Positions 9,699-61,889 of a stretch of 64,000 bases of DNA are shown here, in pieces (the stretch's first letter is position 1; each line of letters opens with the position of its first letter). The position numbers were made by a program, and so were the translations under genes. Location: positions 3,808,001 through 3,872,000 of the forward strand of contig OZ242005.1 in the NCBI GenBank assembly GCA_965204725.1. Reading direction: 5' to 3'. Source of the stretch: Candidatus Latescibacterota bacterium (GTDB lineage Bacteria; Latescibacterota; UBA2968; UBA8231). A model generated the notes under the pieces. That model ran no database searches. It was not told the DNA's origin and saw only the letters and a list, made by a program, of their open reading frames with translations.

Positions 9699-10328
9699 TC
9701 AGTATCCCATATCGCGCAAGTTCTCAAAGCTGAGTTGGGGTTTGTCGCCGAGCAAACGCTCGACATAGCGGGCGATCACATCCACTTCGAGGTTGACAGA
9801 ATCGCCGGTGCGCCGGTGGCTAAGCGTTGTATTAGCAAATGTATGCGGTATGACCGCAACCGTAAAGGCATCGCCGCTGACCTCGGCCACCGTCAGGCTG
9901 ATGCCGTCGAGGGCCACCGAGCCTTTGGCGGCGATGTAGCGGGCGAGCGCGGGCGGCGGCTCGATCTCGAAGCGATGCTCTTGGTCGCGCTCCGTGCGCC
10001 GGCGAATGCGGGCTACGCCATCAACGTGCCCCAAGACGAGGTGACCGTCGAGCCGCTGGTCGGCGCGGAGGGCGCGCTCTAGGTTGACGGCTTGCCCGAT
10101 GGCGAGGATGCCCAAGGTCGTGCGGGCGAGCGTTTCGGGGACCGTCTCGACCGCAAAGCCGCCCTCTGTGATGGTCACGACCGTCTGGCAAACCCCGTCG
10201 ATATTGACGCTGTCCCCCACCTGCAAGCCGGGGAGAACGCGCTCGGCCTCAATCTCCAACTGCTGGAACAGGCCTCGGCGCGCGCGGCCGCGCACCCTTC
10301 CCAGTTCTTCTATGAGTCCGGTGAACAA
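9699..10328 (-). CDS. ribE: Riboflavin synthase alpha chain
   Basis: MFTGLIEE, DGVCQTV, VNLERAL, GHVDG, KGSVALDGISLT, VNLEVD. Confidence 0.95.
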   Translation of the reverse strand: MFTGLIEELGRVRGRARRGLFQQLEIEAERVLPGLQVGDSVNIDGVCQTVVTITEGGFAVETVPETLARTTLGILAIGQAVNLERALRADQRLDGHLVLGHVDGVARIRRRTERDQEHRFEIEPPPALARYIAAKGSVALDGISLTVAEVSGDAFTVAVIPHTFANTTLSHRRTGDSVNLEVDVIARYVERLLGDKPQLSFENLRDMGY

Positions 10329-11407
10329 GTATATCGTACCTCAGCCGTGTAGAGCAGATCGGGACCGAGCCGCTGGGTGCGGCTGGACGCCAAGTGAATG
10401 GCCTCGGCTGCGCGTTCGATCCCCAAGTCGCCAATGGCAGCAACGCCTTCGCCCATCAGTCGCGGTGCGAGGTAGAGCAGGACTTGGTCGACGACGCGGT
10501 CGCTGAGTGCGGCCGCGGCCAACTGGCCACCGCCTTCAATGAGGACGCTGGTCATGCCCTCGCGCGCCATGCGTCCAAGCGGTTGGCGCAAGTCAATGCG
10601 CCCGGCAGCCGCCGGAAAAGTCCAAACCTCGGCTCCTTGGGCCGCGTAGGCTCGGCACTGGTCGGCGGGCGCGTCCTGTGCGGTGACGAGCACGGCACCG
10701 GGCCGCTGATAGACGCGCGCCTCGGGTGAAGTGCGCAAGCGACCGTCTATGACGATGGGCCGCGGATCGCGCCCGGGGACGTGGCGCACCGTCAGGAGGG
10801 GGTCGTCGGCTTGCACTGTGCCCGCGCCTACGGCTACGGCATCGACCCAAGAGCGCCAGCGGTGGACGTGACGCCGCGCTCGGGTGCCCGTGATCCAACG
10901 CGCATCGCCGCTGCGGGCCGCAATGCGACCATCGAGGGTCTGCGCGAGCTTGAGCAAGACCCAAGGCAGGTTTTGGGTGCGGTGTTTGATGTACGCTGCG
11001 TTGAGGCGGCGCGCCTCTTCAGCGCAAAGCCCGACTTCAACGACAACGCCTTTTTCCCGCAGCGCGGCGATTCCCCGCCCGGCCACCCGCTCGTCGGGGT
11101 CTTCCAGCGCACAGTAGAGCCTTTTAATGCCCGCGTGCAGCACGGCTTCGGTGCAGGGTGGGGTGCGGCCGTGGAAGGAGCAGGGCTCCAGCGTGACATA
11201 GAGATCGGCCCCCCGCGCCTCGGCCCCGGCCCCGCGCAGGGCGTGGACCTCGGCGTGGGAGCCGCCGACCTGCAAGTGGGCCCCTTCGCCGACGATGCGG
11301 TCCCCGCGCACCACAACCGCGCCGACCAAGGGATTAGGGCTAACCTTGCCTCGCCCTCGTTGCGCCAACCGCAGGGCGCGGCGCATGTATTGCGCGGGTG
11401 CGTTCAC
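10310..11407 (-). CDS. ribD: Diaminohydroxyphosphoribosylaminopyrimidine deaminase/reductase
   Basis: PNPLVG, HAE, TLEPC..GRTPPC, LDGRIA, EGG. Confidence 0.95.
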   Translation of the reverse strand: MNAPAQYMRRALRLAQRGRGKVSPNPLVGAVVVRGDRIVGEGAHLQVGGSHAEVHALRGAGAEARGADLYVTLEPCSFHGRTPPCTEAVLHAGIKRLYCALEDPDERVAGRGIAALREKGVVVEVGLCAEEARRLNAAYIKHRTQNLPWVLLKLAQTLDGRIAARSGDARWITGTRARRHVHRWRSWVDAVAVGAGTVQADDPLLTVRHVPGRDPRPIVIDGRLRTSPEARVYQRPGAVLVTAQDAPADQCRAYAAQGAEVWTFPAAAGRIDLRQPLGRMAREGMTSVLIEGGGQLAAAALSDRVVDQVLLYLAPRLMGEGVAAIGDLGIERAAEAIHLASSRTQRLGPDLLYTAEVRYTCSPDS

Positions 11408-16406: not shown

Positions 16407-17292
16407 AACCAATGGTGCTAGTGTTTTATAATCCGAACTCCGCGATAGACAAGGCGACGAATCCGTTTTCATCGGCTTGTACTCCGTGCCACTGCACCAG
16501 CAGATTGAAGGCGGCCATGGCCAAGCCGAGATGGGCGGTGAAATACGCCCAAGCTCGATGGGTCTGCTGCTTAAATCGGCTGATTCGGGTGAGCATGGAA
16601 AAGACCGTCTCAAGGACCATCCGCTCGCCCCAGGTGTTACGGCGACACACTTTCAGATTGGCCGGATCGCCGGCTTGGGCATGAAAGCCTGGGTCGCTGA
16701 GGACGATCATCTGCTGTTGGAAGCGCCGGATCATCGGATGAAAGACCGTCTCAAGGACATTGGCCGTATTCCAATCCCAATCAACGATCCGGCCCCATTG
16801 ATTGACGATAACGCACAGCTTGCCTCCGACGATCCAGCGGTGATTGGACCGTCCTTTCTTACCGAGGGGGTGCCGCGCCCGCCCCTGACGCACCGGATGG
16901 ATCAACTCGATGCCATAGCTATCGACTACCCCCAACGTCGTCGGCTCCGCGCGGAAGCGGTCGGTCCAATCGGCATGGGTCGTGAACAGGCGAAACAAGC
17001 GGGTGCGCGACACCAAGCGCGGGAACAAGGCCTGCCAATCCCGCACCAGCCAGCGGTAAAATGCCCGTTTGCTGCCGCCTTTGAGCGCATACAACACCCC
17101 TAAGGTTACGACCTCGCTGGGGTATAAAAACGCTTGCGGATGTTTGGGTACGTCCAGCATGTGATTGTCAATGCGATAGAAGAGGGCTATTATAAAATCG
17201 GCTGTGGTCATCGGGACGATCCTCCGTTGAAAGGTGGGACCCCTCAGCGTAGGAACTACCGCGACCACGGTCAACTACTAGCACCATTAGTT
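16407..17292 (-). mobile_element. IS982-like insertion sequence
   Basis: Terminal inverted repeats with 12-bp core AATGGTGCTAGT (16411) / ACTAGCACCATT (17277) around a transposase; exact ends uncertain. Confidence 0.7.
16426..17211 (-). CDS. DDE transposase, IS982-like
   Basis: VDSYGIEL, WIVGGKL, LSDPGFH, RMVLETVFSML; start at MTTADF (GGAGG RBS). Confidence 0.8.
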   Translation of the reverse strand: MTTADFIIALFYRIDNHMLDVPKHPQAFLYPSEVVTLGVLYALKGGSKRAFYRWLVRDWQALFPRLVSRTRLFRLFTTHADWTDRFRAEPTTLGVVDSYGIELIHPVRQGRARHPLGKKGRSNHRWIVGGKLCVIVNQWGRIVDWDWNTANVLETVFHPMIRRFQQQMIVLSDPGFHAQAGDPANLKVCRRNTWGERMVLETVFSMLTRISRFKQQTHRAWAYFTAHLGLAMAAFNLLVQWHGVQADENGFVALSIAEFGL

Positions 17293-17878: not shown

Positions 17879-20437
17879 GTGTCGCGTATTAAGATTCCAG
17901 TGAACAAACGCACTTGTCGGGCCTTGTCGGTCTTGTTGTCGCTGTTGCTCGCCGCGGCGACGTTTGCCGACGAGGTTGATTGGCCGTACTACGGGGCCGA
18001 TTGGGGCGGCACCCGCTACACTCCGGCGGACCAAATCCACCGCGACAACTTCGATCAGTTGCGCGTGGTCTGGCACTATCGGCCTCGCGATCAGCAGATC
18101 TCGAGACAGCTAGAGCGAGGTGGTCGTTCTCGCCTCCGTTTCAGCAATAACCGGGGTACGCCACTCGCCGTGAATGGGGTGCTCTACTATGGATCGCCCT
18201 TCAACATCCTCTCGGCCATTGACGGCCAAAGCGGCGAGGAGTTGTGGGCTTTCGACCCGGAGGCTTGGCAGAATCGTTCTAGGTTTTTCGGCCGTTCGCG
18301 CGGGGTGAGCTATTGGACTGATGGTGAGGTTCCCCGACCGTACTCCCCCCGCCGCAGACGAAGTTCAGTACGTCCGCCAGCAGCCCGGCCTCGACGAAAG
18401 GTTGAGCGGATCTTTCTGGCTACTTCGACCGCTCATCTGTACTCCATAGACGCCAAGACCGGCATCCCGGACCCAAATTTTGGCGAGGGCGGGCGCGTCG
18501 ATTTGGGGGCCTCGTTGCGTCGGCCACTGAGCGACAGGGATCGCAGGGGCTACGGGGTTACCGCCCCGCCCGTGGTGTGCCGAGACGTGGTCGCCGTTGG
18601 CTCGGCGATCATGAGCGGATGGCTGCAAGATCACGGTGCTCGCCAGATCACCCCCGGCGATGTGCAAGCCTTCGATGTGCGTACCGGCGAGAAGGTGTGG
18701 GAGTTTCACACGATCCCGCAGGAGGGCGAGTACGGCAACGAGACGTGGGAAAACGAGGCGTGGAAGACCTACGGCGCAGCCAATGTCTGGGCGACGATGA
18801 CCGCCGACGAGGAGTTGGGGTATCTCTACCTGCCGGTGAGCACGGCCAGCCACGACTACTACGGCGGCGAGCGTCCCGGCGACAACCTGTTCAGCGAGTC
18901 GGTGGTCTGTCTAGAGGCCGAGACCGGCGAGCGGGTGTGGCACTATCAGTTGGTTCATCACGGTCTGTGGAACTATGACCCGCCAGCGGCCCCCCTGCTG
19001 TTGGACGTGGTCATCAATGGCCAAGCGCGCAAAATTGTCGCCCAGCTTACCAAACAGGCTTTCTGCTTCGTCTTTGACCGCGTCACTGGCGAGCCGATCT
19101 GGCCGATTGTCGAAAAGCCGGTTCCGCAGTCACAGGTAGCGGGGGAACAGACCTCGCCGACGCAGCCTTTTCCGACCAAACCAGCGGCCTTCGAGCGTCA
19201 AGGCATAAGCGAGGCCGACCTGATCGACTTCACGCCTGAGTTGCGCGAGGAAGCTAAGGCCATTCTCGCTAAATACGACTACGGCCCGCTCTACACGCCG
19301 CCGACCGAGAAGGGCGTCTTGTTGGTTCCTAGCCCAGATGGCGGTGCCGATTGGGCAGGCGGCGCGGCCGACCCGCGCACGGGTGTGCTCTATGTGCCGT
19401 CGCACCGTGTCGTCCACAACTTGGTGCTGTGGCCGGTGCGCGACCCGGACGCTTATTCGGCGTTTTCTGCCAGTGCCAGTTGGCGCATCCTCGGCCCTCG
19501 GGGTTTGCCGCTGGTCAAGCCGCCCTACGGCAGCATCACGGCCATTGACCTCAACAGCGGGGAGCATATATGGCGGACGACGGTGGGCAAAGGTCCGGTC
19601 GATCACCCGGCCCTCAAGGACCTCGACCTGCCGGATATGGGCTGGGGCAACCGCACCTTCGTCTTGGCCACGCCGAACCTCCTGTTGGCCACTTCGCAGG
19701 GCCCGCACGGCCTCGCTGATGCTGGCGAGGATTACTTCGTCGATCGCGATGCGTATCTGCGGGCGTACGATTTGGCGTCCGGTGCGGAGATAGGCCGCGT
19801 CGAACTGCCCAGCAACGCCTATGGTGCGCCGATGAGCTATACGGCCGGCGGTCGTCAGTACGTAGTCGTGCCGCTGGGCAACTCTCTAGGCGAGTTCGGT
19901 CGTCCGCCTGAATTGGTCGCCTTGGCCATTCCACGCGATGGCGAGGAACTGCCGCCTCAAGGCCGAGACCGCGGCGACGCTGACCACAAAGCCTATTACG
20001 AGGCGGTAGAAGCCCTTGATGCTGGCGACGTTGAGACCCTTCAGAAGTTGCTCGCCGAGTACCCCGAGCTAACGACGGCTCGCGGCTACTTCGACGAGTA
20101 TTACGAATACCCGTACTTTCGCGGTGCCACGCTCTTGCACCATCTGGCTGGCGAACCACAGCGAGTACCGCTGCCCGCAAACGCGGTTGAACTAGCCGCG
20201 GCTCTGCTCTCAGCCGGTGCCGATCCCAACGCCGCCACTCTTGATTCGGTCGCCGTGCTGGATTTGGTGATGAGAAGTGCCCAGCTTGAATGGGCCAAGA
20301 GCAAGTCCGAAATGGTCCAGCTCTTAGTCTCAGAGGGCGTGGATTTAGATTACTTGGATATGGATACCTCTAAGGCCCTTGACGAGTTGCTCAGAGCGCA
20401 CCATGAAGCCGCCGGAGGGCAGGCGGATGCAGACTAG
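17879..20437 (+). CDS. PQQ-dependent (glucose/quinate-type) dehydrogenase with C-terminal ankyrin-like domain
   Basis: DWPYYG, GTPL, WEFHTIP, GAANVW, GDNLFSES, WHYQLVHHGLWNYD, PTQPFP, KPPYG; C-terminal GATLLHH...LLSAGADPNA. Confidence 0.88.
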   Translation: MSRIKIPVNKRTCRALSVLLSLLLAAATFADEVDWPYYGADWGGTRYTPADQIHRDNFDQLRVVWHYRPRDQQISRQLERGGRSRLRFSNNRGTPLAVNGVLYYGSPFNILSAIDGQSGEELWAFDPEAWQNRSRFFGRSRGVSYWTDGEVPRPYSPRRRRSSVRPPAARPRRKVERIFLATSTAHLYSIDAKTGIPDPNFGEGGRVDLGASLRRPLSDRDRRGYGVTAPPVVCRDVVAVGSAIMSGWLQDHGARQITPGDVQAFDVRTGEKVWEFHTIPQEGEYGNETWENEAWKTYGAANVWATMTADEELGYLYLPVSTASHDYYGGERPGDNLFSESVVCLEAETGERVWHYQLVHHGLWNYDPPAAPLLLDVVINGQARKIVAQLTKQAFCFVFDRVTGEPIWPIVEKPVPQSQVAGEQTSPTQPFPTKPAAFERQGISEADLIDFTPELREEAKAILAKYDYGPLYTPPTEKGVLLVPSPDGGADWAGGAADPRTGVLYVPSHRVVHNLVLWPVRDPDAYSAFSASASWRILGPRGLPLVKPPYGSITAIDLNSGEHIWRTTVGKGPVDHPALKDLDLPDMGWGNRTFVLATPNLLLATSQGPHGLADAGEDYFVDRDAYLRAYDLASGAEIGRVELPSNAYGAPMSYTAGGRQYVVVPLGNSLGEFGRPPELVALAIPRDGEELPPQGRDRGDADHKAYYEAVEALDAGDVETLQKLLAEYPELTTARGYFDEYYEYPYFRGATLLHHLAGEPQRVPLPANAVELAAALLSAGADPNAATLDSVAVLDLVMRSAQLEWAKSKSEMVQLLVSEGVDLDYLDMDTSKALDELLRAHHEAAGGQADAD

Positions 20438-20603
20438 TGCCGCTCCTTCGAGGAAGGGGTGCATAGACGGGCCATGCGAATCGCTGTAGGCCGTGCCCAT
20501 TTCTAAAAGATGGAGCATACGGCACAATGAGAATACCGACGCCCATCATCATCCGCGTCTTAATTGCCTTCGGTCTTCGACGATGTGGGTTATGGATACA
20601 GTT

Positions 20604-21626
20604 CTAGGGCGGTCCGGGCTTATTCGTTGATGGATGAGCCTGTACGCCCGGGAGACGCTCTTTGATGGCGATGGCCAAATCCACTCCGTGGTTTCGTGTG
20701 TTATCCGTGACAACTTTCTTGGCCCTCGTCGCCTTAACGTACTCAAGCGTCTCATTGAAGTCCGCATGATTAGATAACGCCACCCTATAAGCCCGATCCG
20801 AATATGTCATCAGCGGATCATCGGTATTGGCCATGTACGCGCTGCATGTGACGCTTGTTTCGCCGATTAGTTCGTTGCCAAAACCATCTCCCTTTGAATA
20901 CAGTCGAATATAGGCTCGTTCCCTCATGGCAGATTGACCTGAGTCCGAGTCGAGTGCGTATAGGTCCCCGATAGCGGATCCGTAATTTTGATAGACCTTC
21001 ACTTCCCCAATGAGTCGTTCGCTGGCCAGAATCGGAACCCCTACGTTGACCCCGAGTACATGCAACACGCGCTCGATAGTTCCTCTGTGAGCTTTGACAT
21101 GCACAGAACCATGTCGCAGTCGCTCACATACGAGGTTTAACAGACACTCCTCCGCTTCCGCTTGGGTGTAGCGGCGTACGCTTCTGGGGCTCCCATAGGT
21201 GCTGTCCACAACAAGCTCATCGACTTGAATAACCTCATTGAGAGGCCAGCCGAAGTCACTTGAATAGCCGACTCGGAGGCCATCGGGTAATTCCAGCGCG
21301 ACTTGACACGAGCCGAGCATGTGGTTGGAGGGAAGAAGGGATAGCTTCGATCCGTCGTTGAGCACACGCTCGTCGCCTCGATTTACTTGGTGGATGTTGT
21401 CACGGAACTCAAGGTCTGCATTGAGTTCCTCTACCAGAAGTGCATATGTTTCTGGACTCATCAGAAAATCCTGAAAGCCCTTGCTCTTGTCGAATTCGCC
21501 CATGTGGTCATCGTGGATATGTGTCTGGACGCGGAAAGGGTATCCTTCGGCGAAACCATCACACACTACTTTTGACCCGAGGCAGACCGCACCACTCGCA
21601 AGAACGTCAACAATGGGGTCGGGCAT
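20604..21626 (-). CDS. MBL-fold / beta-CASP family nuclease
   Basis: THIHDDH, NHMLGS, YSSDF, LVVDSTYG, LSNHAD; start at MPDPIV. Confidence 0.8.
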   Translation of the reverse strand: MPDPIVDVLASGAVCLGSKVVCDGFAEGYPFRVQTHIHDDHMGEFDKSKGFQDFLMSPETYALLVEELNADLEFRDNIHQVNRGDERVLNDGSKLSLLPSNHMLGSCQVALELPDGLRVGYSSDFGWPLNEVIQVDELVVDSTYGSPRSVRRYTQAEAEECLLNLVCERLRHGSVHVKAHRGTIERVLHVLGVNVGVPILASERLIGEVKVYQNYGSAIGDLYALDSDSGQSAMRERAYIRLYSKGDGFGNELIGETSVTCSAYMANTDDPLMTYSDRAYRVALSNHADFNETLEYVKATRAKKVVTDNTRNHGVDLAIAIKERLPGVQAHPSTNKPGPP

Positions 21627-22329
21627 TCTCAACAGTCTCCGAGATGTGGATTCGAAGCCGCGCCTCAATGCTCTCCTTGCCAATGCTCTTCATTGACGCA
21701 TCAAAGCACTCGTTTCCGACTAGTGTGAAGAACCGCTTTCCGAGCCGACCGGATACTCCCTGGAGGTTGAGGAGATTGATACCAGACTCAAGAATCGAAT
21801 CTCTCTCCGTCTGTGTGAGCTCAGTGAGAGCGTCCCCGACATTCTGATCAACAACCGAACCGATGAAGACGTAGCGTCTTTCGATTACTGGCCGCATACC
21901 TAAGATTTCCTTTAGGCATGTGCAAATAGGACGTTTTGAGCGCATTCTGAGTTGAACGACCTGTCGGACCTCCTTTCCATTGAGGCCGTCTGCGAGGATC
22001 GAACTAGCGACGGTACGCTGATCGTCAAGGTCCTGAAGCCGTACCAACTCAATGGCGGACGAAAAGCCGATAGCGTCCTTGCCAGCTCCCCAATCAACTA
22101 GGTGCCGAAGATCGTGAGGTAGGTCGAGAATTCGTAAAAAACGACCTACGCCTGTTCCGTCAATGCGGGCCTCGGTTGCACAGTCCCTAAGAGATGCACC
22201 TGAATCGCGAGCTTTGCGGAAAAGTGATCCCACCTCTATGGGAGAGTACGGGCGCCCCTTCTTGTGTGTCCCGTAACCTATGGACATCCGAAGGCGTGCA
22301 AGTTCTAAGGTGCTCAACCCGGCCAGCAT
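21607..22329 (-). CDS. Hypothetical protein with ParB/Spo0J-like HTH region
   Basis: YSPIEVG...GASLRDCA...GVGRFLRILDLP resembles the ParB HTH; no N-terminal CTPase motif. Confidence 0.6.
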   Translation of the reverse strand: MLAGLSTLELARLRMSIGYGTHKKGRPYSPIEVGSLFRKARDSGASLRDCATEARIDGTGVGRFLRILDLPHDLRHLVDWGAGKDAIGFSSAIELVRLQDLDDQRTVASSILADGLNGKEVRQVVQLRMRSKRPICTCLKEILGMRPVIERRYVFIGSVVDQNVGDALTELTQTERDSILESGINLLNLQGVSGRLGKRFFTLVGNECFDASMKSIGKESIEARLRIHISETVENARPHC

Positions 22330-22334
22330 CGACT

Positions 22335-23162
22335 CTACTCCTCCTCTAAGAGGCCGCGGCCGATCAGTGCTTCTTCGATGAGGGCAGAAATCGCCTCGTC
22401 TTGGTTGGTACCTTCTTCTTGTGCAAATCTTCGGATAGCGTTGTGTGTGTCGTGGGTCACCGTCACCGTTATCTGCGTTACTCTAGCCCCAGTTTTCGCA
22501 TCCTCAATTTTGTCGTCAATTGGTTTGGCAGGGTTTTTCTTGAATTCCTCAGAAAATTTTGTGCGTTGGGGCCCCGTCATCTGTTCCATTTCTTGGGCTA
22601 ATTTAGTAGCGACATCAATGTCTGCCTCTCCGTCGTCCTTAGTGGCAGCATCTTGCGCCTTTAGGGCGACATTGACGTCGATTCGCCCTTCATCAACCAT
22701 CTCCTGCAATTTGGACTCCAACCGCGGGTACTTCACATAATCCCGCACGTTTTTGTAGGACAAGCCCGTGGCTTCTGTTACAGCCTTTGCAGTTCCATAG
22801 ATTTTGTACAAGTAAGTGACTCCTTCGATAAGCTCTTTCCCAGAGAGCTTTCGCCGAATAAGATTCTCGGTAATCGAGATGGCCTTGGCTTCGTGCTCTT
22901 CAACCCGTTCATCGAGAATAGCTGCCGTGATGCTTTCTCGTTTCAGAATCCTATGTGCCAAGAACCGCCGCTGGCCTGTGAGAATCTCCCACTTACCCGC
23001 TTCCCTCGCTGGGCAGACTACAATCGGCTGTAGCAGTCCTTGCGCTTTGATGCTTTCGGCCAAGTCTTCAATTTCCTTGCCGACGTCTTGGACCCGTGCC
23101 TGCCCCTTTCCAATAGTCAGGTCATCGAGCGGGATATCTTTATACTCAACGATCTTTGCCAT
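22335..23162 (-). CDS. ParB/RepB/Spo0J-family protein with C-terminal ribbon-helix-helix-like tail
   Basis: SIKAQGLLQPIVV, ILTGQRR, ENLIR; C-terminal VTVTHDTHNAIRRFAQEEG...ISALIEEAL. Confidence 0.85.
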   Translation of the reverse strand: MAKIVEYKDIPLDDLTIGKGQARVQDVGKEIEDLAESIKAQGLLQPIVVCPAREAGKWEILTGQRRFLAHRILKRESITAAILDERVEEHEAKAISITENLIRRKLSGKELIEGVTYLYKIYGTAKAVTEATGLSYKNVRDYVKYPRLESKLQEMVDEGRIDVNVALKAQDAATKDDGEADIDVATKLAQEMEQMTGPQRTKFSEEFKKNPAKPIDDKIEDAKTGARVTQITVTVTHDTHNAIRRFAQEEGTNQDEAISALIEEALIGRGLLEEE

Positions 23163-23166
23163 GACT

Positions 23167-24567
23167 TTAGTGCTCCTTTTTTTTGGGTTTGCGTGTCAGG
23201 AAGATGTCTCCAGTTTCGAGTTCCAAAATCTGCATCAATTCCTCCTTCGTGAAGCGGTGAGTAGTTGTCTCCGCAGATTCAATTACCTCATCGAATAGAC
23301 ATTTCTTTTGTTCAAGTATCGTTTCGATGCGCTCCTCGATCGAATCGGCTACGAGGAAACGAATAACGTGTAACGGCTCCTCTCGGTCAAAGCGGTGAGC
23401 CCGATAGATCGCTTGGACCTCGGCTGCGGGATTCCACCACCTGTCGAAAATCACGACGTGCGTCGCCTCGCCCAGATTCAGGCCCACTCCTCCGGCCCGA
23501 AGGGACACCAGAAGTCCCCGAGGCGTAGCTCCGGTCCTAAACTGGTTTATGGCAATCTGCCTCTCGGCAAGCGACATTGATCCTGTCAAGAGGTCGTGCG
23601 GAAGCTCGATCCTGTCCGAAATCCATCGCAGAGTTTCGACAAACTGCGAAAAGACAAGAATGCGAGCAGAATCTCCGACCCCTTCGCTAATCGTCTTCAG
23701 AGTATCCAATTTTGATGAGGCGTTCGCGGGCGCATCGAAATTACAGATAATCTTCAGTCGTGTGATGAGTCCGAGCAACGCGGTACTGCTATCTCCGTCA
23801 GATGAGTTTTTGCTGATGGTTTGGGCGCGATTTACCCACAGCTCGTCGTATCTTGTTCTCTGCGGTACTGAGAGTTCGATTTTCAAGTCTTGGAATATAA
23901 CTGGGGGCAGTTCGGCCCGAACGCCAGATTTTCGCCGCCGAAGCATCATCGACTCCAACTTTTTGACCAAGTACGATTTAGGAAGCCCTCGTCCAACCGA
24001 CGGGTCGAGAAAACTGAGAATAGACACAATATCGTTTTCGTCGTTTTCGAGAGGTGTAGCCGACAGTGCCCAAGCACGTTTGCGTGGCAGGAGCCGGCAG
24101 GCTAGTGCAGTAGTGGAATCCCTGTTTTTGATTCGTTGGGCCTCATCAAGGATCACGAGATCGAAGGTATCCGAGGGAATCCGGTCCAAGCCATCGGATC
24201 GAATTTGTTCGTAAGAACTCACGAGAACAGGGATTGGCAGTAGGTAAAACGCTTCACGGGCGCGTACAGTACCCTGTACGCGCCGCGTAGCCACCGATGG
24301 TGCCCAAGTTGAGAGCTCCATCATCCAGTTAGTCGTCAGCGATGCGGGTGCGATGATCACGGCTCGGCGTACCTCGCTCTGTCCGTTCAAGAGAAGCGCT
24401 AGTGCGACCGCGGTCTGGACAGTTTTCCCTAGCCCCATCTCGTCAGCGAGGAGGGCAGAGCGAGATCGATACAAGAACGCGACGCCCTCCCACTGGTAGC
24501 TATGGAGCGTCGCGGGAACGCCGAGTTGGCTTTCTGCGAGACGACGGAGTTGTAGCGTGTTAAGCAT
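23167..24567 (-). CDS. Stand-alone SNF2-family (SF2) helicase/ATPase
   Basis: LADEMGLGKT, DEAQRIKN, SATPLEN, FSQF, SLRAGGVGLNL, WWNPAAEVQAIYRAHR. Confidence 0.92.
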   Translation of the reverse strand: MLNTLQLRRLAESQLGVPATLHSYQWEGVAFLYRSRSALLADEMGLGKTVQTAVALALLLNGQSEVRRAVIIAPASLTTNWMMELSTWAPSVATRRVQGTVRAREAFYLLPIPVLVSSYEQIRSDGLDRIPSDTFDLVILDEAQRIKNRDSTTALACRLLPRKRAWALSATPLENDENDIVSILSFLDPSVGRGLPKSYLVKKLESMMLRRRKSGVRAELPPVIFQDLKIELSVPQRTRYDELWVNRAQTISKNSSDGDSSTALLGLITRLKIICNFDAPANASSKLDTLKTISEGVGDSARILVFSQFVETLRWISDRIELPHDLLTGSMSLAERQIAINQFRTGATPRGLLVSLRAGGVGLNLGEATHVVIFDRWWNPAAEVQAIYRAHRFDREEPLHVIRFLVADSIEERIETILEQKKCLFDEVIESAETTTHRFTKEELMQILELETGDIFLTRKPKKKEH

Positions 24568-26357
24568 CAATCGAACGTCCAGACTTGGATGGCTTGTTTC
24601 GCCATCTCTTGCTGTCTCTTTTCAATTAACGTCGGAGTCCAGTCATCATATTCGCCAAGCTTGCGCGTAAGCACGATTCCACTTTCTTGATAGCTCTCTC
24701 TCTTCTTCATAAAGTTACCATTATACTTCGGGCCAGGCTTATTGTCCGCCGGGCCCATAAGTGTCAGATTCCCGATTCTATGAACCCAATCACCAACAGT
24801 TTCGGGATCGAAACCGGGCCAAGAGTTCCAATGATGTGGAGACTCCGGCAGTATGTGCTCAACGGTACAGAAACGTTCGTCTAATAGCCGTGCATCACGT
24901 TGCATGTTGCCATTAATTCCGAGCAAGAATTGCTTAATTTTTGGATTTCCTGTCATTCTCGTTTCAAGTAGGGCATCCCGAAACTTAGAGTCGTCCAGCA
25001 CCCCATACGCCGAGCGGTCGCAATTGAGTAGGAAATCTGCAAATTCGGTGTCGGGAATATCGGCAGCCCCCGATATATCTTTGGCGTAGTCGGAAAACTG
25101 CGCTTCGAAGTGAGAGGGCTCGAATTTCGGTGCGATGAATGCTGTTCTGAGGACAAATGCCGTCAGACGCTTCAGGTTTTTGTTGGCGAGTCTCGCAATT
25201 CGCGGCTTTTTACGTCCATCCGACTCCCGAAGGTACCAAGCTAACGTAGCAAAGACCAGAGGTTGAGTAACTTTGTATCTACGCAGCTCACGAAGAAAGA
25301 CTGCCAAGTTCCTCGGTGATCTTGTTGTCCCGGAGGCAACCTCGAACGCCCGGATGAAATCAGGGTTTGGAGTCGTCGCCGTGATTGTGCGAAAGAGTTC
25401 CAAGGATTCGCCAGAAGTGACCTGCTCGGTTATCTTGAACACGTAGTCTGCCAAGGCAGCCTTTTCTTGTTCCTTTTTGTCTATCTGGTTACGAATAGCC
25501 TCCCGCACCTCGCGATAGAAATGATCCTTATGTAGAAAGCCGAATCTACATTGCAAATGACACCGCATGTATTCGGATGCCTTATTAGGGCCAGAAATAA
25601 TTGTGCGAATTCTCTCCAGATTTTCATGTACCGAATTTTTTCTTTCAGAATCATTTTCCGAATTAAAATGCGAGTACAGATAATTGCGGATGAGGTCTAA
25701 ATCGTCGAGTTGCTTACCTCTACAGTTGATCGTCTCATATACGGCGTTCGGATCGATGTGCGGTGGAACCCGCAGACATGCTACTTCGAGCTTCTTGGTA
25801 AGAAAGTCGAAGTACCGTTCTAATTCCTCGTAACTCAGGGGAGAGAAGAAGCTCTCGATCTCTGCCCACGCGGCCGTAAGGGGACCGTTGGTCCCAATCG
25901 TGTGCCCTCTGATCATAAGACGATATTGCATCGCGTCATTCTTTGGAGGAGAAATTCGAGGAGTATAACGCTCTGAGTCTTCCATAGTCCATGCGCTGTT
26001 GGCATCGAGATCGAAAAGCATCCGTAGTGCGAGCCCTTCCCGTTGCGAGCCCTTTATTTCGCGTACAAATCGGCGACAGAGGGCGGCGCACATTAACGAT
26101 ATTGTTACCATCCTTTGTTGGCCATCGTTGATTGCCCACCGTTGGTGTCCGACCTCTACTAGCATGATTGCACCAAGAAAGTAACAATCGCGTTCCTCTT
26201 TTATCGCATCTTCGATATCGTGGAGCAGTGCTTGAACATCGCTCGGCTTCCAATCGTAATAGCGCTGATGCCACGGGACGTCGAAATAGCCCTGTTGGAA
26301 CAAGTCCGAAAACAACATCGCTTCTGCCCCGACAACAGTCTGAGGTTTCTTTGTCAA
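24567..26357 (-). CDS. DUF262 + DUF1524 (HNH) protein, SspE/GmrSD-like modification-sensing nuclease
   Basis: PWHQRYYDW, DGQQR, YETINCRG (DUF262); VEHILP, IGNLTL..N (DUF1524 HNH). Confidence 0.88.
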   Translation of the reverse strand: MTKKPQTVVGAEAMLFSDLFQQGYFDVPWHQRYYDWKPSDVQALLHDIEDAIKEERDCYFLGAIMLVEVGHQRWAINDGQQRMVTISLMCAALCRRFVREIKGSQREGLALRMLFDLDANSAWTMEDSERYTPRISPPKNDAMQYRLMIRGHTIGTNGPLTAAWAEIESFFSPLSYEELERYFDFLTKKLEVACLRVPPHIDPNAVYETINCRGKQLDDLDLIRNYLYSHFNSENDSERKNSVHENLERIRTIISGPNKASEYMRCHLQCRFGFLHKDHFYREVREAIRNQIDKKEQEKAALADYVFKITEQVTSGESLELFRTITATTPNPDFIRAFEVASGTTRSPRNLAVFLRELRRYKVTQPLVFATLAWYLRESDGRKKPRIARLANKNLKRLTAFVLRTAFIAPKFEPSHFEAQFSDYAKDISGAADIPDTEFADFLLNCDRSAYGVLDDSKFRDALLETRMTGNPKIKQFLLGINGNMQRDARLLDERFCTVEHILPESPHHWNSWPGFDPETVGDWVHRIGNLTLMGPADNKPGPKYNGNFMKKRESYQESGIVLTRKLGEYDDWTPTLIEKRQQEMAKQAIQVWTFD

Positions 26358-27556
26358 GCCGAAGCCTCTTCAGGATTAGGAGTAATCGCTTCGTGCAGGG
26401 CCGAACGACAGTCTTGGCGAATTTGGTCTCGACGCCAGATGTCCTCGATGACGTCGAGTTCTGATTTGGTAATTAGCTGTTGTTCTGTGGCTTGTTCCAA
26501 AGCCTGCAATTCGCTCAGGATACGCCTGCGGACATCGAGTTTGAAAGGTCCCATGACAGGAGTTCCGTCGGCACGGGATTTCAAGTTTCCATCTCGCCGT
26601 ACGCGCTGACGATTTGCATCGTCTTCGCGGAGTTGGACTAGCCGCTCACGGAAGTCGAAGAGACGTGCGAAAACCTCTGCATCTTCGTGGCCAGAATCGA
26701 TTAAGCCACGCAAGCTCCGATCTTTACTAACGACGGTACATGTCCAGCAACCGAATCTAGGTGAGGTTGTTCCACATGAGGGCGCATCGTCCTTGGTCAG
26801 TACCAGCGGGCATTCCCCTCCACCAGCATTCCGATACAGAGTGATTAGATCGTGATGCGAGCCGCCCCATGGTGGCCTTCGTTGCATCAGGATCAGCCAC
26901 ACATCCTCGTCTTTGAATTCGGCGAGTGGTGCGAATATACGGCACCCCTCGACAGAACTGTGAGGATTCATCTTGGTTGCCGAAACCCCGTGCTTTGCCA
27001 TGTTGCGGCGACGGCTCTCGGACTCACTCTTGCGCGTTCCTACCAATAGCACAGTGCGCTTGTGCGTACGAACAAGACTTTCGAGTAGTTGGCTAGTTGG
27101 GACAATTTTCATTCGATCGGTACACCATCGAAAATTCCGTGTCGGGGGAATGTAGCCACGTCCAATCACGTTGACCCAGAAAGTTTGATCGATATGCGGC
27201 CTCGTGATCTGCGTCTCGATCGGCAGTTCGTTCTCGGTGGCAGCGGTGCTGATCGTCGATATGGTAGTTTTGAGATGCCGGATGACCAGCGGCGACTCGA
27301 CTAGCGTATCATTGCCTACGATATAGACCTTGCGCCGTCGCGAGTGAACAGGAAGCGATGCCAGCATCTCCCATATCAGTTGGAGCAGCAAGGTCGAATC
27401 CTTTCCACCAGAATAGGCCACTATCCACGGATCGAGATGCTTACGCAAGTATTCCCTCCGAATGATGTCCATGGTGGCGTTGAGCCGCTCGACGACACGG
27501 ACGATTCCATTATGGCTATCGCTTGCGCCGGATCTCTGCTGGGTGCGCTCGTTCAT
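26354..27556 (-). CDS. dndC: DNA phosphorothioation sulfurtransferase DndC (PAPS-reductase-like)
   Basis: [13 protein letters not shown]-loop, [53 protein letters not shown]. Confidence 0.9.
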
Positions 27557-28779
27557 GTCATCACTGTCGGCCGTACCCGAGGATACGGATTAGTGGCACG
27601 ACCACTTCGGCAAATTGCTCGCCACTGAGGGGACAACTGGCGCAAAGCGTCAACGGAGTTCCGTACACATGCTATCGCGAAGTCGACTTCCTCTTCGGTT
27701 GTGAATCGCCCGAGGCTGAAGCGGACTGAACAGCTTGCGAGATCCTCGGATAAGCCTAGCGACCTCAATACATAGGAAGGCTCTACACGCGATGACGTAC
27801 AGGCCGAACCAGATGAGATAGCAACGTCCTTCAACGACATCATTAGGGACTCACTCTCGACGCAAGCAAAGCCAATGTTCACGATTCCTGAAACGCGATT
27901 CGCTCCATTGCCGTTTACGAAGGAATACTCAATATCTGCAAGACGATCAAGCAAGAGGCGATCGAGCTTGGCAATAGCTTCGACATCGCGGCTTCGACGT
28001 TCGCGTGTCAACTGTGCGGCCGCGCCCATGCCGACTAGTTGATGTGTTGCCAGCGTCCCCGATCGGAGACCCTGCTCTTGGCCACCGCCGTGTATTTGAG
28101 GCTCGATCCGGATGCGGGGCCAGCGACGCACGTACAATGCTCCGACGCCCTTAGGTCCGTACATCTTGTGTCCGCTAAGTGAAATAAGATCCGCTTGCAT
28201 AGATCGCGTATCAAGCGATAGACGAGCGGCACTTTGAGCCGCGTCCACATGGAATGTGACCTCACGGGCGCGAGTTATTTTGCTTATCGCATTGACGTCG
28301 GTGATAGTGCCGACTTCGTTGTTCACATGCATAAGGGAGACAAGGATGGTGTCTTCCCTCAGCACTCTCTCCACGAGTTCTGGGGAGATTAGACCGTCCT
28401 GCTTAGGACTGATATAGGTAACCTCGAATCCTTCACGGGATAGCTTATCGCATGAATCCAGAACCGCTTTGTGCTCCAGACTTGAGGTTACAATATGTTT
28501 GCCTCGGTGGGCATATCCATGCGCTACGCCCTTGATAGCCAAGTTGACGGATTCGGTAGCTCCCGATGTCCAAACGATCTCGGACGGGTCAGCGTTGATG
28601 AGCTGGGCCACCTGATCCCGTGCCTTCTCCACTGCCGCTTCGGCTTCTTGGCCGAAGCGGTGTGAACGCGACGCGGCGTTGCCGAACGTCCCATCCAGCC
28701 CTAGGCACTGGGTCATCACCGCGATGACTTGCGGGTCGACAGGCGTCGTTGCGGCATAGTCCAAATAGACGGGGTACAT
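27553..28779 (-). CDS. dndA: Cysteine desulfurase (IscS/DndA-type)
   Basis: [32 protein letters not shown] (PLP Lys), SSGSACTS (catalytic Cys); stop overlaps dndC start; no iscR/iscU nearby. Confidence 0.85.
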
Positions 28780-28896
28780 GAGTCAGTGATCGTTTTTCCG
28801 TGAAGCGGCTGAATAAAGACAGGTCCTTAGTAAAGGGGGCGTGATCTCTAACCAAGAAAACCGATGCTGTTTCATCCAAGTAACCTGTTAGACTCA

Positions 28897-28924
28897 ATAG
28901 TATCGTATCCTCGCATCAGGTCAA
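28897..28924 (-). promoter_or_regulatory. Putative sigma70 promoter of the dndA-led operon
   Basis: Minus strand TTGACC-N16-TACTAT. Confidence 0.5.
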
Positions 28925-29006
28925 GCCTCGTCACCCTTGTTGCCGCCGCTCGCCCGTTGTGTCCCGGGTACAAAATGGCCAGCCTCATCACTTGAGGCTC
29001 ATAGAG

Positions 29007-29972
29007 TCAGTCGAGATTCGCCGCGACGATTTCGGCGTGAACTTGGAAGATATGGCTGTCGTTTGGATCGACGATCACCCGCAGCCAGTGGATCTCGGGC
29101 GTACCAAAAGGCTCGATGCGCGTGAAGCGCACCAGACGCTGGCTCGTGCCGGCCTGACGTAGCGGTTTATCTACGCGGAAATAGTGAGAGTCGCCGTGCG
29201 CTAGGGCCACCGGCCGGCCAAAGCGGACGACTTCTTGCTCTAGGGCCTGCAAAAAAGCTGCGTATGGTCCGTCCGGTTTGTTTTCCCGTTCCTCAAAGCG
29301 CGGGTTGGCGTGGATGATGAGGAAGATGGCGCGATGATCTTGTTCCGCAGCTTGGGCGAATGTTGTGCGCATCCAAGCAATGGCGGCGGCGGTGCGGCTT
29401 TTGACCTCCGCGTCGTTGGCCTGAGTGCGGCCTTCAAACGCGGCGGTGGCGTTGCCGCTGCCGACTATGTGCAACACTGCAAAGCTCGTCCGCCCGTGGG
29501 TCCAGCGCACGTGCTCGGGAAAGGTGTCCCCTTGGGTGCCGACGCGCATGGGATGCCGGCCCAGCGTCCAACCTGGGCGCGAAAAAAAGAGTGCCCGCAC
29601 TCGCGCCAGCCGGTCCAGCGGCTGGTATCCGCTCCGGTGGCAGTCGGTCCAGTCGTTGTCGCCCGGGACCAAAATGAAAGGGCGTTCAAACTGCTGGAAC
29701 CACTCGAAGCGGCTCTGCAGCAGGCCATCGGTACAGGGGCTGCTGCCGCCCTTGATATCGCCCACGTGGACGACCCATTCCAAGCCCTCGGCGCGGTTAA
29801 TTTTCTCGACGAGCCGACCAAAGCGGACGCTGTCGGTCGGAGAATACGGCATGTCCCCAATCAGGGCGAAGGCGAAGGTTTCCTCGGCGGGGTCCGCAAG
29901 CGGTAGGACTTGGGCACTGGCGGCGTCTAGCAGCGCGACGATTAGGGATAGACTCAGAAGATGCCGGGCCAT
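29007..29972 (-). CDS. Secreted calcineurin-like metallophosphoesterase
   Basis: Signal peptide; GDMPY, HVGDIK, PGDNDWTDCH, HGDSH. Confidence 0.85.
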   Translation of the reverse strand: MARHLLSLSLIVALLDAASAQVLPLADPAEETFAFALIGDMPYSPTDSVRFGRLVEKINRAEGLEWVVHVGDIKGGSSPCTDGLLQSRFEWFQQFERPFILVPGDNDWTDCHRSGYQPLDRLARVRALFFSRPGWTLGRHPMRVGTQGDTFPEHVRWTHGRTSFAVLHIVGSGNATAAFEGRTQANDAEVKSRTAAAIAWMRTTFAQAAEQDHRAIFLIIHANPRFEERENKPDGPYAAFLQALEQEVVRFGRPVALAHGDSHYFRVDKPLRQAGTSQRLVRFTRIEPFGTPEIHWLRVIVDPNDSHIFQVHAEIVAANLD

Positions 29973-39299: not shown

Positions 39300-40555
39300 T
39301 TGGGGTTTGGCGAAAATCCGCTACTCAAGGCAGTACAGGGCCGCGCAAACGGCGAAATTCGTTCAATCCCTCAGAGCGACAACACCCAACGTGCGATCCT
39401 TGAGCACGTCCCTAGCGGTTGCCGCGTCCGCTGTATCGCCAGCGACCCCCGGCGGGCGCACGGGTTGCGGCCAAGCCTTGTAATCGCGGACGAACCGGCC
39501 CAATGACCGCAATCGACTGCGGACGCCGTGTATGCCGCTCTGAGTACGGCGTTGGGCAAGGTCCCTAACTCAAGGCTCGTGGCTATTGGCACACGTAGCG
39601 CGGATAGCGGCCATTGGTTTGAACGGCTATTGAAGGACGCCGACTTCTCGCTGTGCCATGCAGCGGACGCCGAAGATGACCCCTTTGACGAATCGACGTG
39701 GCTAAAGGCATGTCCTCAGTTGAAACGCTTGCCCCATCTACTCAAGGCGTTCCGGGAGGAAGCACGAGCGGCCCAACGTGATCCGGCCTTGCTTGCCCAA
39801 TTCAAGGCGTTGCGCTTGAACATGGGCGTCAGCGACGTGGTCGTCCTCTACTTGGTAACTCCTGACGAATGGTTGGCCGTAGAGGACGAAGTAACGACAA
39901 GCGCGAACAAGACCGGCCCTTGTGTTTGGGGCATTGACTTAGGGGCAACTGCGGCAATGAGCGCCGTTGCCGCATACTACCCGGAAACGGGGCGCATGGA
40001 CGCCATCGCAGCATTCCCCAATGACCCGCCGTTGGGCGTCCGGGAGCGTTTCGATGGCGTAAAACCGGGCTTGTATCAGAATATGGCGGATCGCGCCGAA
40101 TTGCTCCTGTTGGGTGACAAGGTGGTTCCGGTTGGGCAACTACTGAACGCCGCGCAACAGCGGTTGGGCTACCCGGACGCCATCGCTTGCGATAGATGGC
40201 GGTTGGGCGAACTAGAGGACGCTATGACGGACGCCGCACTCCTTGCCCCCGTCCAAGCGCGGGGCATGGGCTTTAGGGATGGGAGCGAAGACGTGCGCTT
40301 GTTCAAGACGGCCCTACTATGAAGGGCGCGTAACCCCCGTCCGCTCGCTCCTGCTGCGTTCCGCAGTTTCAGAAACAACGGCTCGTGCAAGACCCGGCGG
40401 GCAATGCGAAGATCGCAAAAAGCGGCGAGGGTGCTAGACGGCGCTATGGCCGCGACGACCCGGCCGTAGCCGGTGTGCTTGCTGTTGCCCTCGCTGAACG
40501 AATGCCGAAGAAGGTGGCCGTAGCGTTTGACCATATTCCGCTTGACCAGCTTTGA
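39300..40555 (+). pseudogene. Phage terminase large subunit, N-terminally truncated, with nonsense codon and frameshifts
   Basis: AHGLRPSLVIADEPAQ*(TGA 39504-39506), then in-frame ...GIDLG..., CDRWR; frameshifts near 40320 and 40390 lead to DPAGNAKI...GRDDPAVA. Confidence 0.8.
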
Positions 40556-60162: not shown

Positions 60163-61006
60163 GAAGCTATCTCATAAATAGTCTGGCCGTGCAAAGTTAG
60201 TGGTATTCCCTTTCGGAGGTATCTCTTATGGATCTTACAGACGAACAGTGGTCGATAGCGTCCCCGCTGCTGCCGGCGTGTCCCAAACGCCGCGATGGTC
60301 GGGGTCGTCCTTGGCGTTGTAACCGGGCGGTGCTCAATGGTATTCTGTGGATTCTCCGCACCGGGGCCCCTGGGCATGACCTGCCTGCTCGCTATCCGTC
60401 CTACCAGACCTGCCATCGTCGATTCCAACAGTGGTCGTCTGATGGCACCTTTGAACATATTCTGCGCACCCTCGCGCACGACTTACATGAGCGGGGGGGC
60501 CTCGATCTGAGCGAATGCTTCATCGACGGCCTGTTTGTCGCGGCGAAAAAAGGGGGGACCAAGTGGGTCCGACCAAGCGGGGCAAAGGTACGAAGCTCAT
60601 GGCAGTGGCAGACCGCGCTGGTCTTCCTATCGCCGTACTCATCCAAAGTGCTTCGCCCCACGAAGTCACCCTCGTAGAAGCCACCTTGGAAAACCGATGG
60701 GTCCAGCCCCGACCACAACGACTCATCGGGGACCGAGCCTACGACTCGGATCGATTGGATGCGAGCCTGGCCAACCAAGGCATTGAGATGATCGCCCCGC
60801 ATCGCCGCAATCGCACGCAGGCCAAAACCCAGGACGGGCGGCGCTTGCGGGGCTACAAAAGACGCTGGAAAGTAGAAAGACTGTTTGCTTGGTTGCAGAA
60901 CTTTCGCCGAATCGGGGTTCGATACGAATACTATGCCGAAAACTACCTCGGCTTTGTACAACTCGGATGCATCCTCATATTGCTACGGTATTTATGAGAT
61001 AGCTTC
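60163..61006 (+). mobile_element. IS5-family element (IS427-like, two ORFs joined by -1 frameshift)
   Basis: Perfect 18-bp IRs GAAGCTATCTCATAAATA / TATTTATGAGATAGCTTC; slippery A6G6 run near 60546. Confidence 0.9.
60228..60997 (+). CDS. IS5 transposase (OrfA 60228-60677 plus OrfB to 60997 via frameshift)
   Basis: [19 protein letters not shown]; [24 protein letters not shown]. Confidence 0.88.
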
Positions 61007-61889
61007 TCGTCACTTCATAGCCATCCTCAACTCGAGATTCGTCAACTACGTTTTGATCCGGATATTTCCTGATATGCCAATCTATCAATTTATTCGTTTT
61101 TTTTCGATAGACTAAAACATATTCTGTTACAGGTACGGCCTTGTACTGCAACGGATTTCTATCAGCCGCAAATCTTCTGCCTCGTCCCGTTGCCCAGCCA
61201 GCCCCTTCCGGTTTTACCCATATTATGTCATCAATAAACTCAAATCCTTCTTCAATAAAAATTCTATGAAAATCAAAAGGAACAGCTATTCTTTTAGAAG
61301 ACTCACTCCGGCTTGCACGGCGAATAAGCACTGGTGATATATTTATGACAAAAAACCTACCTTCGTTTAGAACCCTATGGCATTGGTGTATTATTTTTTT
61401 CATTTTGAGCAAGTATTCATCGTATTGAATATAATCAGAATACTCGGGTCGAGCATTATAGTAGGGTAGAGAAGTAAAGACAAGATCTATAGATTCAGAA
61501 GGTGTCTGCAAAAGCAACTCCTCACTATCTCCCCAACCAACCGTATTTCTCAATTTTGAAACTCTGGGTACTTCTGTTTTTTTCCGCTTCTTGGTTGTAC
61601 CATTTGCACGGCCGAGTAGCCTCGCCTCTAAGATCTCCTTTTGCGTCGTCTTCTTTTCTTGTATTAAGCTCGTATAAGCATCAATCACAATTTCGCCAAC
61701 CTTATGGCCCCCTTTACCTTTCAAGGGCACCCGCCAGATATGATAGCGATCATCTACTTCTGGAAGTCCAAACTGAATCGCATTTTCGAGATCAATATCT
61801 TTTAGATAATTCACAGAAACTCTCTTCGCATCCTCGACATTTTTTACGCGATACTTTCGTCTATCATAGACTGTTGATTTCTGTAGCAT
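61007..61889 (-). pseudogene. N4/N6 DNA methyltransferase (beta class), C-terminus removed by IS
   Basis: IDLVFTSLPYY (SPPY variant), DIIWVKP; lacks the HP..P and FxGxG region; AT-rich; N-terminal PepSY-like extension. Confidence 0.8.

Follow-up and report, generated by a model that had tools for sequence, protein, structure and literature searches.

A DndD-less short-DndC trio and a phosphorothioate writer-linked SNF2-ParB-beta-CASP gene cassette in a predicted defence island of a Latescibacterota bacterium

According to a 2025 review, the systems that restrict DNA by means of phosphorothioate (PT) modification fall into three branches, and the PT-writing core includes an ATPase and a DNA-recognition protein (PMC12707154). 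In Salmonella enterica Cerro 87, the writer IscS-DndBCDE is accompanied by DndI (PDB 9JFL), a 596-aa DUF262+DUF1524 protein with a PT-stimulated ATPase, which nicks DNA and, together with IscS-DndBCDE, protects Escherichia coli from phages (PMC11662687). Other described partners are DndFGH, reported by the same source to lie nearby in only 340 of 568 dndBCD genomes; SspFGH, described as resembling DndFGH; SspE, the PT-sensing nickase of the SspABCD system; and the PbeABCD cassette of the DndCDEA-PbeABCD system of Haloterrigena jeotgali, which consists of PbeA (PLD and helicase), PbeB (66 aa), the SMC-like PbeC and PbeD (152 aa) (PMC6459918). TdpABC is reported to be a compact PT system of extreme thermophiles in which one gene, tdpC, suffices for writing, with TdpA and TdpB as the restriction pair (An et al. 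2025, as cited in PMC12914056 and PMC13223576). Here we describe a seven-gene operon (20604-28779, minus strand) in a stretch of 64,000 nucleotides from a Candidatus Latescibacterota bacterium (GCA_965204725.1, contig OZ242005.1, positions 3,808,001 to 3,872,000; hereafter, the window). The operon joins a writer-like trio that includes a short DndC and a DndI-type protein to a four-gene cassette which, in other genomes and in metagenomes, stands beside PT writers of several kinds.

The seven genes encode a cysteine desulfurase (A), the short DndC (C), a DUF262/HNH protein (G), an SNF2 protein (S), a ParB protein (P), a ParB-helix-turn-helix (HTH) protein (H) and a beta-CASP protein (M). We refer to A-C-G as the trio (module 1) and to S-P-H-M (SPHM) as the cassette (module 2); features are listed in Table 1. 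An earlier reading made from the sequence alone (the sequence-only reading) had proposed a single new PT defence system of seven coupled minus-strand genes, with a minimal writer and a new reader and effector set. Its description of the genes holds. The open reading frame listing of the window gives the same coordinates, overlaps and gaps; the domain calls were borne out by Pfam, PADLOC, NCBIfam and structure matches; and the motifs are intact (the pyridoxal-phosphate lysine and SSGSAC in A, SGGKDS and CWTC in C, DGQQR and HNH in G, GLGKT and DEAQ in S, GQRRFLA and ENLIRR in P, and HIHDDH in M). The A/C, C/G and G/S junctions overlap by 4 nt each, S overlapping the stop codon of G, and S/P and P/H are separated by gaps of 4 and 5 nt. 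The unity of the system did not survive, as the genes form two separable modules: A-C-G is also found with a GIY-YIG nuclease and DndB, and SPHM mostly beside dndBCDE. As for novelty, the four-gene cassette is the new part of the proposed reader and effector set; G belongs with the described PT reader DndI, and a DUF262 gene next to dndC had already been flagged as a candidate (PMC12914056). Taken together, we favour, with moderate confidence, the reading that the locus is a horizontally acquired PT-based self/non-self island of two modules, a writer with a DndI-type reader and a second, PT-linked effector cassette.

The cassette was traced in metagenomes. Scanning these with an alignment of M turned up 94 relatives, and the 80 best were retained. 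All four genes were present in the order S-P-H-M at 42 of these 80 loci, and most of the others were short contigs that end inside the cassette. Thirteen loci had at least 5 kb on both flanks; 11 of them carried S-P-H-M, one P-H-M and one M alone. A PAPS-reductase writer was present in every one of the 12 with at least P-H-M, namely canonical dnd(B)CDE(A) in eight, the short-DndC trio in three and sspABCD in one. The eight canonical loci have a full-length DndC (479-524 aa where tested), DndD (488-524 bits) and DndE, often together with DndB and DndA. Among loci with at least 8 kb of total flank, a writer was found in 21 of 25. The cassette is located between dndE and dndA in six loci, and the orders SspB-SspC-SspD-S-P-H-M (L118) and PbeA-PbeC-(dnd_assoc_4)-S-P-H-M (L144) were also observed. 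When 31 related genomes were searched, strong matches to H occurred in two, the window's own and G023, both near a writer. Thus the tie of the cassette to PT writers is strong, and its effector function is predicted. The synteny check that the sequence-only reading had suggested was also positive: all seven genes occur together in six genome loci (L001, L003, L013, L019, L025 and L029) and two metagenome loci (L082 and L085), and because the arrangement is conserved in other genomes it is more than a matter of chance.

In a tree of S and M, the trio-linked cassettes form a group of 12 (SH-aLRT 87), with L013 elsewhere, and they are nested, with support of 100, beside six dndCDE-linked cassettes. 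The cassette has therefore passed from canonical dnd settings to the trio on at least two occasions. Relatives of M were absent from viral contigs, and plasmids gave one weak match only (24.5% identity). Two loci have P-H-M without an SNF2 gene. In G023 (L184, G023:C1:3733000-3752900) these genes directly follow PbeABCD and an SspD-like gene, and PbeA there brings a helicase of its own; in L129, the place expected for S is taken by a XerC/D-like recombinase.

SPHM resembles PbeABCD in being a conserved set of four genes found with PT writers, mobile in its own right and equipped with a helicase-type motor; it differs in consisting of SNF2, ParB, ParB-HTH and beta-CASP nuclease proteins. The two cassettes co-occur in L144 and G023. 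Identity of SPHM with PbeABCD was rejected, since none of the seven proteins of the window matches the Pbe models and the same PADLOC library finds PbeA and PbeC in L144. Identity with SspFGH or DndFGH, in which DndF is kinase-like and DndH has an FtsK-type ATPase, was likewise rejected, there being no PADLOC or NCBIfam match. The 7-deazaguanine system Dpd is similar in being a DNA-modification defence with a ParB-like ATPase (DpdB) and an SNF2 helicase (DpdE), but it is described with no TGT-independent sulfur chemistry, no beta-CASP nuclease and another gene set (PMC12839542). A survey of dnd neighbourhoods lists HKD, HNH, REase, URI, HEPN and PIN nucleases, with no SNF2/ParB/metallo-beta-lactamase set in its text (PMC10853773). 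Our literature search, made in openly readable full texts without supplementary tables, turned up no account of an SNF2/ParB/beta-CASP cassette linked to dnd or ssp genes; within the same scope, no DndD-less DndC-DndI clade was described, apart from a one-sentence "DUF262" candidate that is considered below.

The individual proteins of the cassette belong to recognisable families, although PADLOC 2.0, NCBIfam and Pfam contain no model for SPHM as such. S matches PF00176 (7e-42) and PF00271 (3.5e-20), and in PADLOC only the helicase parts of ZorD and DpdE (DpdE models, 5e-58). P matches PF02195 (1.3e-14) and TIGR00180 (76.5 bits, cut-off 58.45); its nucleotide-binding motifs GQRR..A and EN..R are invariant in 15 relatives, its C-terminal RHH_6 match is weak, and its PADLOC matches are only weak as well (PD-Lambda-5_A, best E 9.1e-06). 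The HTH_ParB match of H is weak in Pfam (E 0.002) and has an Atlas score of 0.95. The structure model of H (pLDDT 93) matches the DNA-binding domains of Spo0J, ParB and KorB over residues 1-134 (Z 12.2, 11.7 and 9.8, respectively); residues 148-240 gave fold matches only at Z 6 or less. The H family comprises 323 clusters at E<=1e-30, and 540 at E<=1e-10, among 1.84 billion representatives. For M, the best solved relative is SNM1A (E 2.7e-4), a hit that would place it in the DNA branch of the beta-CASP nucleases, and TIGR04122 is matched at E 9e-16. The HIHDDH motif (HxHxDH) and H121, D143, D160 and H306 are invariant in 10 relatives of M, whose only annotations are "hypothetical protein" or "putative mRNA 3-end processing factor". 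Neither H nor M has a match in PADLOC.

A protein of 582 aa (P0153), one of the 323 H-family clusters, is predicted to consist of H (residues 1-233) fused to M (residues 241-574, 49% identical to the M of the window). Either the fusion is natural, in which case it would support H and M acting together, or the gene prediction has read across the region where the two genes normally overlap. We take Met20 to be the true start of M, because an alignment of 10 M proteins and the H-M fusion protein place it there; with that start (about 21626), M overlaps H by about 20 nt. A structure-based complex prediction for P, M and H (partner H) scored 0.00, which is no answer and counts neither way.

The trio, in turn, belongs to a distinct lineage of DndC. 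A scan with one genome per species gave 80 DndC loci, 31 of them close to that of the window (DndC 56-71% identical) and 49 distant (44-53%). G lies directly after C in 28 of the 31 close loci (tblastn), as against one distant locus of 49 with G, and A is upstream of the short DndC in 20 of the 31. DndD was found in none of the 31 close loci but in 35 of the 49 distant ones. The sequence-only reading had allowed that the locus could be a deletion derivative if its relatives always contained dndD/E; the distribution points instead to a conserved DndD-less architecture. The G-linked DndCs make up one clade (31 G-linked rows and one other; SH-like local support 100; FastTree, 105 sequences), and the best 120 database clusters of the short DndC are 66-100% identical and 372-432 aa long.

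The absence of the usual partners from the operon was also as proposed: no dndB, dndD, dndFGH, sspB/C or pbe gene was recognisable with PADLOC and NCBIfam. In the whole genome of the window (94% complete), the best match to the model of DndD, an SMC-like ABC ATPase, had 21 bits against a cut-off of 245.85, and the genome of locus L001 gave no match, while the same model scored 234-270 bits in three control genomes with a DndD-linked DndC. DndE, a double ribbon-helix-helix protein, has no match in the operon, which has no unassigned room; the genome-wide search for DndE also gave no match in the genome of the window, yet it was insensitive, because the model missed DndE in two of three dndCD-bearing control genomes. 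DndB, a regulator with a DGQHR motif (PF14072), has no match anywhere in the genome of the window, and the family is present in 18 of the 31 close loci.

What follows G varies among the 28 G-bearing loci: GIY-YIG and/or DndB in 16, S-P-H-M in seven, both in two and neither in one, the remaining two being cut or partial. The DndB-family proteins after G match PF14072 with 99-125 bits. It is from these alternatives that the seven genes of the window are seen to be two modules. The sister architecture, IscS-short DndC-G-GIY-YIG(110-128 aa)-DndB, was observed in L004, L005, L007-L011, L014, L016-L018, L022, L024 and L026-L028. Its small GIY-YIG nuclease, conserved in 16 of the 31 loci, has no PADLOC model, and it may nick DNA for the writer or serve as a back-up effector. 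In one of these loci, from a Dehalococcoidia metagenome-assembled genome (MAG), a Cas3 HD-helicase gene adjoins the trio (L016:14497-16176, minus strand), which suggests that the trio there sits in defence islands.

Carriers of the short DndC belong to at least nine phyla, and sponge-associated lineages are named in many of the record titles. In four sequencing runs from a single study, which bear the label "sponge metagenome", 84-93% of the sampled words of the operon were present. The spread of the trio over so many phyla, with MAG names pointing to sponge symbionts, points to strong selection in that habitat. The short DndC was absent from all 18 of the other same-genus genomes searched, which fits horizontal acquisition of the island.

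In the trio, A matches PF00266 (E 4e-82), the PADLOC models of SspA (5.6e-158) and DndA (5.9e-156), and the IscS model NF010611 (585 bits, cut-off 548). Since another IscS-like gene, 48% identical to A, is present elsewhere in the genome (C1:1978222), the island supplies A as an additional copy. C passes the DndC equivalog TIGR03183 (344.9 bits, cut-off 290.4) and matches PADLOC DndC at 1e-115 over profile positions 9-382 of 481. SGGKDS and Cys145, 205, 249, 261, 270 and 273 are invariant in 19 relatives, and the mean column identity of these 19 sequences is 72%. C aligns to residues 8-381 of a canonical 479-aa DndC, which runs about 98 residues further. In DndC of E. coli B7A, DndD binds to residues 433-482 and to the last helix, according to an AlphaFold3 model and pull-downs with point mutants (PMC12193691), and the tail absent from the short DndC corresponds to these surfaces. 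Loss of the docking tail thus accompanies loss of DndD, and the architecture is derived but stable, not the product of a recent deletion. The structure model of C (moderate pLDDT of 68) resembles NcsA/TtuA, and no solved DndC- or TdpC-like structure matched C by sequence, profile or Foldseek fold search.

G matches PF03235 (GmrSD_N) and PF07510 (GmrSD_C), with DGQQR at residues 78-82. In PADLOC, it matches HEC-06 (3.5e-69) and Orf5 (7e-48), and the SspE models only weakly (5.7e-14). The Orf5 models probably represent the same family as DndI, which is the best solved relative of G: both domains align (E 5e-13, family level), and the DGQQR and HNH residues are conserved, including the Asn equivalent to N541. 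G is the fastest-evolving gene of the set (34-62% identity, compared with 56-73% for C). We infer that G is a DndI-type protein, with PT sensing predicted by analogy.

Compared with the described systems, the trio shares with IscS-DndBCDE-DndI a desulfurase, a DndC, a 596-aa DUF262+DUF1524 protein with DGQQR and HNH and, in its sister loci, DndB. It differs in that the operon has no recognisable DndD or DndE, that its DndC has no docking tail, and that G directly follows and is coupled to DndC. SspABCD-SspE likewise combines a desulfurase, a PAPS-reductase writer and a DUF262+DUF1524 PT-sensing nickase, but C matches DndC and not SspD (only 5e-7 in PADLOC), the operon has no match to the nickase SspB or the ATPase SspC, and G is only weakly SspE-like. 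TdpC is a reported precedent for a writer without DndD and DndE; Tdp is reported from extreme thermophiles, whereas the short-DndC clade consists mostly of MAGs with names that point to sponge symbionts. A dndC neighbourhood with a P-loop NTPase and a DUF262 gene in Sulfurimonas was proposed as a possible new PT system (PMC12914056, 2026). This "DUF262" proposal takes up one sentence and a figure node in that source, with no cassette and no validation, and it may belong to the same clade. Thus the trio is a conserved DndD-less architecture with partial precedent only, and its proteins are predicted to write and read the modification.

The chemistry, the direction of discrimination and the parts played by P, H, S and M may be pictured as follows. 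The island's own desulfurase would load sulfur onto the short DndC, which has kept the PP-loop and the Fe-S cysteines and might write PT without DndD and DndE, alone as is reported for TdpC; alternatively, G could assist it by contributing an NTPase and the ability to nick. If G works like DndI and SspE, it would sense PT, let go of self DNA that bears the mark and nick DNA that lacks it. In the cassette, P, as a ParB-type NTP-binding clamp, and H, as a ParB-HTH binder, may survey the DNA, S may translocate along it as an SNF2 motor, and M, as an SNM1-like nuclease, may degrade DNA without the mark. SPHM would then be a second PT-dependent effector beside G, as DndFGH is beside DndI in Salmonella, and a mobile cassette that keeps company with all kinds of PT writer; probably, it represents a new arm of the bacterial DNA-sulfur anti-virus system. 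A fuller version is tentative, and we consider it less likely than not as a whole: SPHM would be a further class of PT-dependent effector, whose ParB-type clamp reads the mark and which plugs into Dnd, Ssp and DndD-less writers, and at the same time the short DndC and G would be a two-protein PT machine, in which G supplies the NTPase and nicking of DndD/DndE and also reads the mark, spread horizontally among sponge symbionts.

Most dnd clusters have no known restriction partner, and a cassette associated with PT writers of all types would constitute a new branch. If SPHM is indeed a PT effector, a ParB-type clamp would act in a role not yet known for defence. Furthermore, a conserved DndC lineage without DndD, the docking tail and apparently DndE is relevant to the question of what is minimally needed to install PT and to select its sites.

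Several observations weigh against the reading of the locus as a two-module PT island. The loci were sampled through M itself, so that cassettes without M, or distant ones, are outside the sample, and the 12 loci with a writer include near-copies (L087 = L090; L122 = L123; L104, L106 and L109), which reduces the independent lineages to an estimated nine or so. Moreover, L132 and L133 have an M homologue (10001-10870 and 10001-10855, 54-55% identical over about 80% of the length) with no S, P or H nearby and no PT writer within 10 kb; it may be a stand-alone paralogue or the remains of a decayed cassette. As for the trio, C is below the cut-off of the stricter NCBIfam model NF005316 (398 bits, cut-off 536). 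In a HMMER alignment, the PT-sensing Tyr25 of DndI (Y30 of SspE) pairs with His30 of G; Tyr24 of G is an aromatic residue near His30, and the pocket may differ. G is also closer in PADLOC to the stand-alone candidate HEC-06 than to Orf5, and might on that account act as an ordinary type IV enzyme. Finally, the position of SPHM inside dnd operons fits equally well a role as writer helper or in the repair of PT sites.

This last point leads to the possibility, in our view rather unlikely but a serious one, that SPHM helps to make or to maintain PT DNA: S and the ParB proteins would give the writer access to sites or control expression of the writer as DndB does, and M would process nicks or oxidised PT sites. 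The location of the cassette within the modification operon, as between dndE and dndA, would suit such a function, as would the nearest named family of M, a ligase-associated DNA-damage exonuclease, and the repair nuclease SNM1A. The alternation after G of GIY-YIG with DndB and SPHM (16 loci with DndB only, seven with SPHM only and two with both) further suggests that ParB could take the place of DndB, itself a regulator of the ParB superfamily. However, many canonical loci carry both DndB and SPHM, and P is therefore no simple replacement of DndB; most PT systems function in the absence of any such module, and the combination of helicase and nuclease is typical of restriction modules (PbeA, ZorD). 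That SPHM is an independent defence system without any dependence on PT, which merely shares islands with dnd and ssp, is very improbable. Defence systems do cluster, solitary Pbe cassettes are reported as well (320 of 553 without dndCD; PMC6459918), and L116 has 7.8 kb downstream without a writer, its upstream side being cut. Yet independence is difficult to reconcile with the presence of writers of three kinds in 12 of 12 loci with both flanks, with operon-like junctions, S being translationally coupled to G in the window, or with the near absence of M relatives from viruses and plasmids.

An objection of another sort concerns the trio. The A-C pair might make no PT at all, the short DndC performing some other ATP- and sulfur-dependent modification of nucleic acids or being inactive without DndD/E, and G acting by itself as a type IV enzyme of the GmrSD kind that attacks modified phage DNA. 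The partners expected of the core (a PAPS reductase with an ATPase and a DNA-recognition component; PMC12707154) are indeed missing beside the short DndC, and both the best PADLOC match of G, a single-gene candidate, and the His in place of the sensing Tyr are in line with this account. We nevertheless regard it as improbable. The short DndC passes the equivalog cut-off, its sequence is very strongly conserved and none of its catalytic motifs has been lost, a dedicated desulfurase is linked to it in 20 of the 31 loci, the dnd-specific family DndB occurs with it in 18 of them, and tdpC is a reported precedent for a single-gene PT writer (cited in PMC12914056).

The lower-GC block proposed by the sequence-only reading was confirmed, GC being 0.49-0.55 over 20001-29000 and 0.61-0.66 in the flanks. 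The single promoter was not: the hexamers at 28924-28897 are a consensus match only, and with seven such matches in the region against 6.2 expected by chance, the one upstream of A is no evidence. A scan for terminators likewise gave the chance level only, and no Rfam family reaches its gathering score within the window.

Table 1. Features of the operon and its surroundings in the window
Feature	Position	Strand	Basis
A: IscS/DndA-like cysteine desulfurase, 408 aa	27553-28779	-	PF00266, PADLOC, NF010611
C: short DndC, PP-loop/4Fe-4S sulfurtransferase, 400 aa	26354-27556	-	TIGR03183, PADLOC DndC
G: DndI-like GmrSD-family protein, DUF262 NTPase + DUF1524 HNH nickase, 596 aa	24567-26357	-	PF03235, PF07510
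S: minimal SNF2 ATPase, no extra domain, 467 aa	23167-24570	-	PF00176, PF00271
P: ParB-type protein, N-terminal NTP-binding domain + HTH + C-terminal ribbon-helix-helix, 275 aa	22335-23162	-	PF02195, TIGR00180
H: ParB/KorB-type DNA-binding protein without NTPase domain, small C-terminal alpha/beta domain, 240 aa	21607-22329	-	
M: SNM1/Artemis-like beta-CASP metallo-beta-lactamase nuclease, 340 aa from Met20 (ORF readable from 21683, 359 aa)	20604-21626	-	
Promoter-like hexamers 5' of A, consensus match only	28897-28924	-	TTGACC-16-TACTAT
Low-GC block containing the operon	20001-29000		GC 0.49-0.55

The genes that flank the island are ordinary chromosomal genes. A PQQ dehydrogenase (17879-20437) lies at the M end, and a metallophosphoesterase (29007-29972) and an FG-GAP protein with a T9SS sorting domain lie at the A end. 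Neither convincing flanking direct repeats nor a tRNA was found at the borders of the island. A DDE transposase fragment (16426-17274, minus strand; PF13612, E 1.5e-6), 3 kb from the M end, may bear on the arrival of the block. Farther away in the window, a gene for an N6/N4 DNA methylase of 304 aa (60975-61889, minus strand; PF01555, E 3e-18) coincides with a sharp GC trough (0.41 over 61001-62000, about 0.6 around it); it is probably a further gene for DNA modification that arrived by horizontal transfer. The plus-strand segment 39528-44013, some 11 kb away from the island, encodes the nuclease domain of a terminase large subunit (39528-40322) and the domain of a phage capsid (42760-44013), with a leucine-rich-repeat protein between the two, and looks like a prophage remnant or a phage-derived element.

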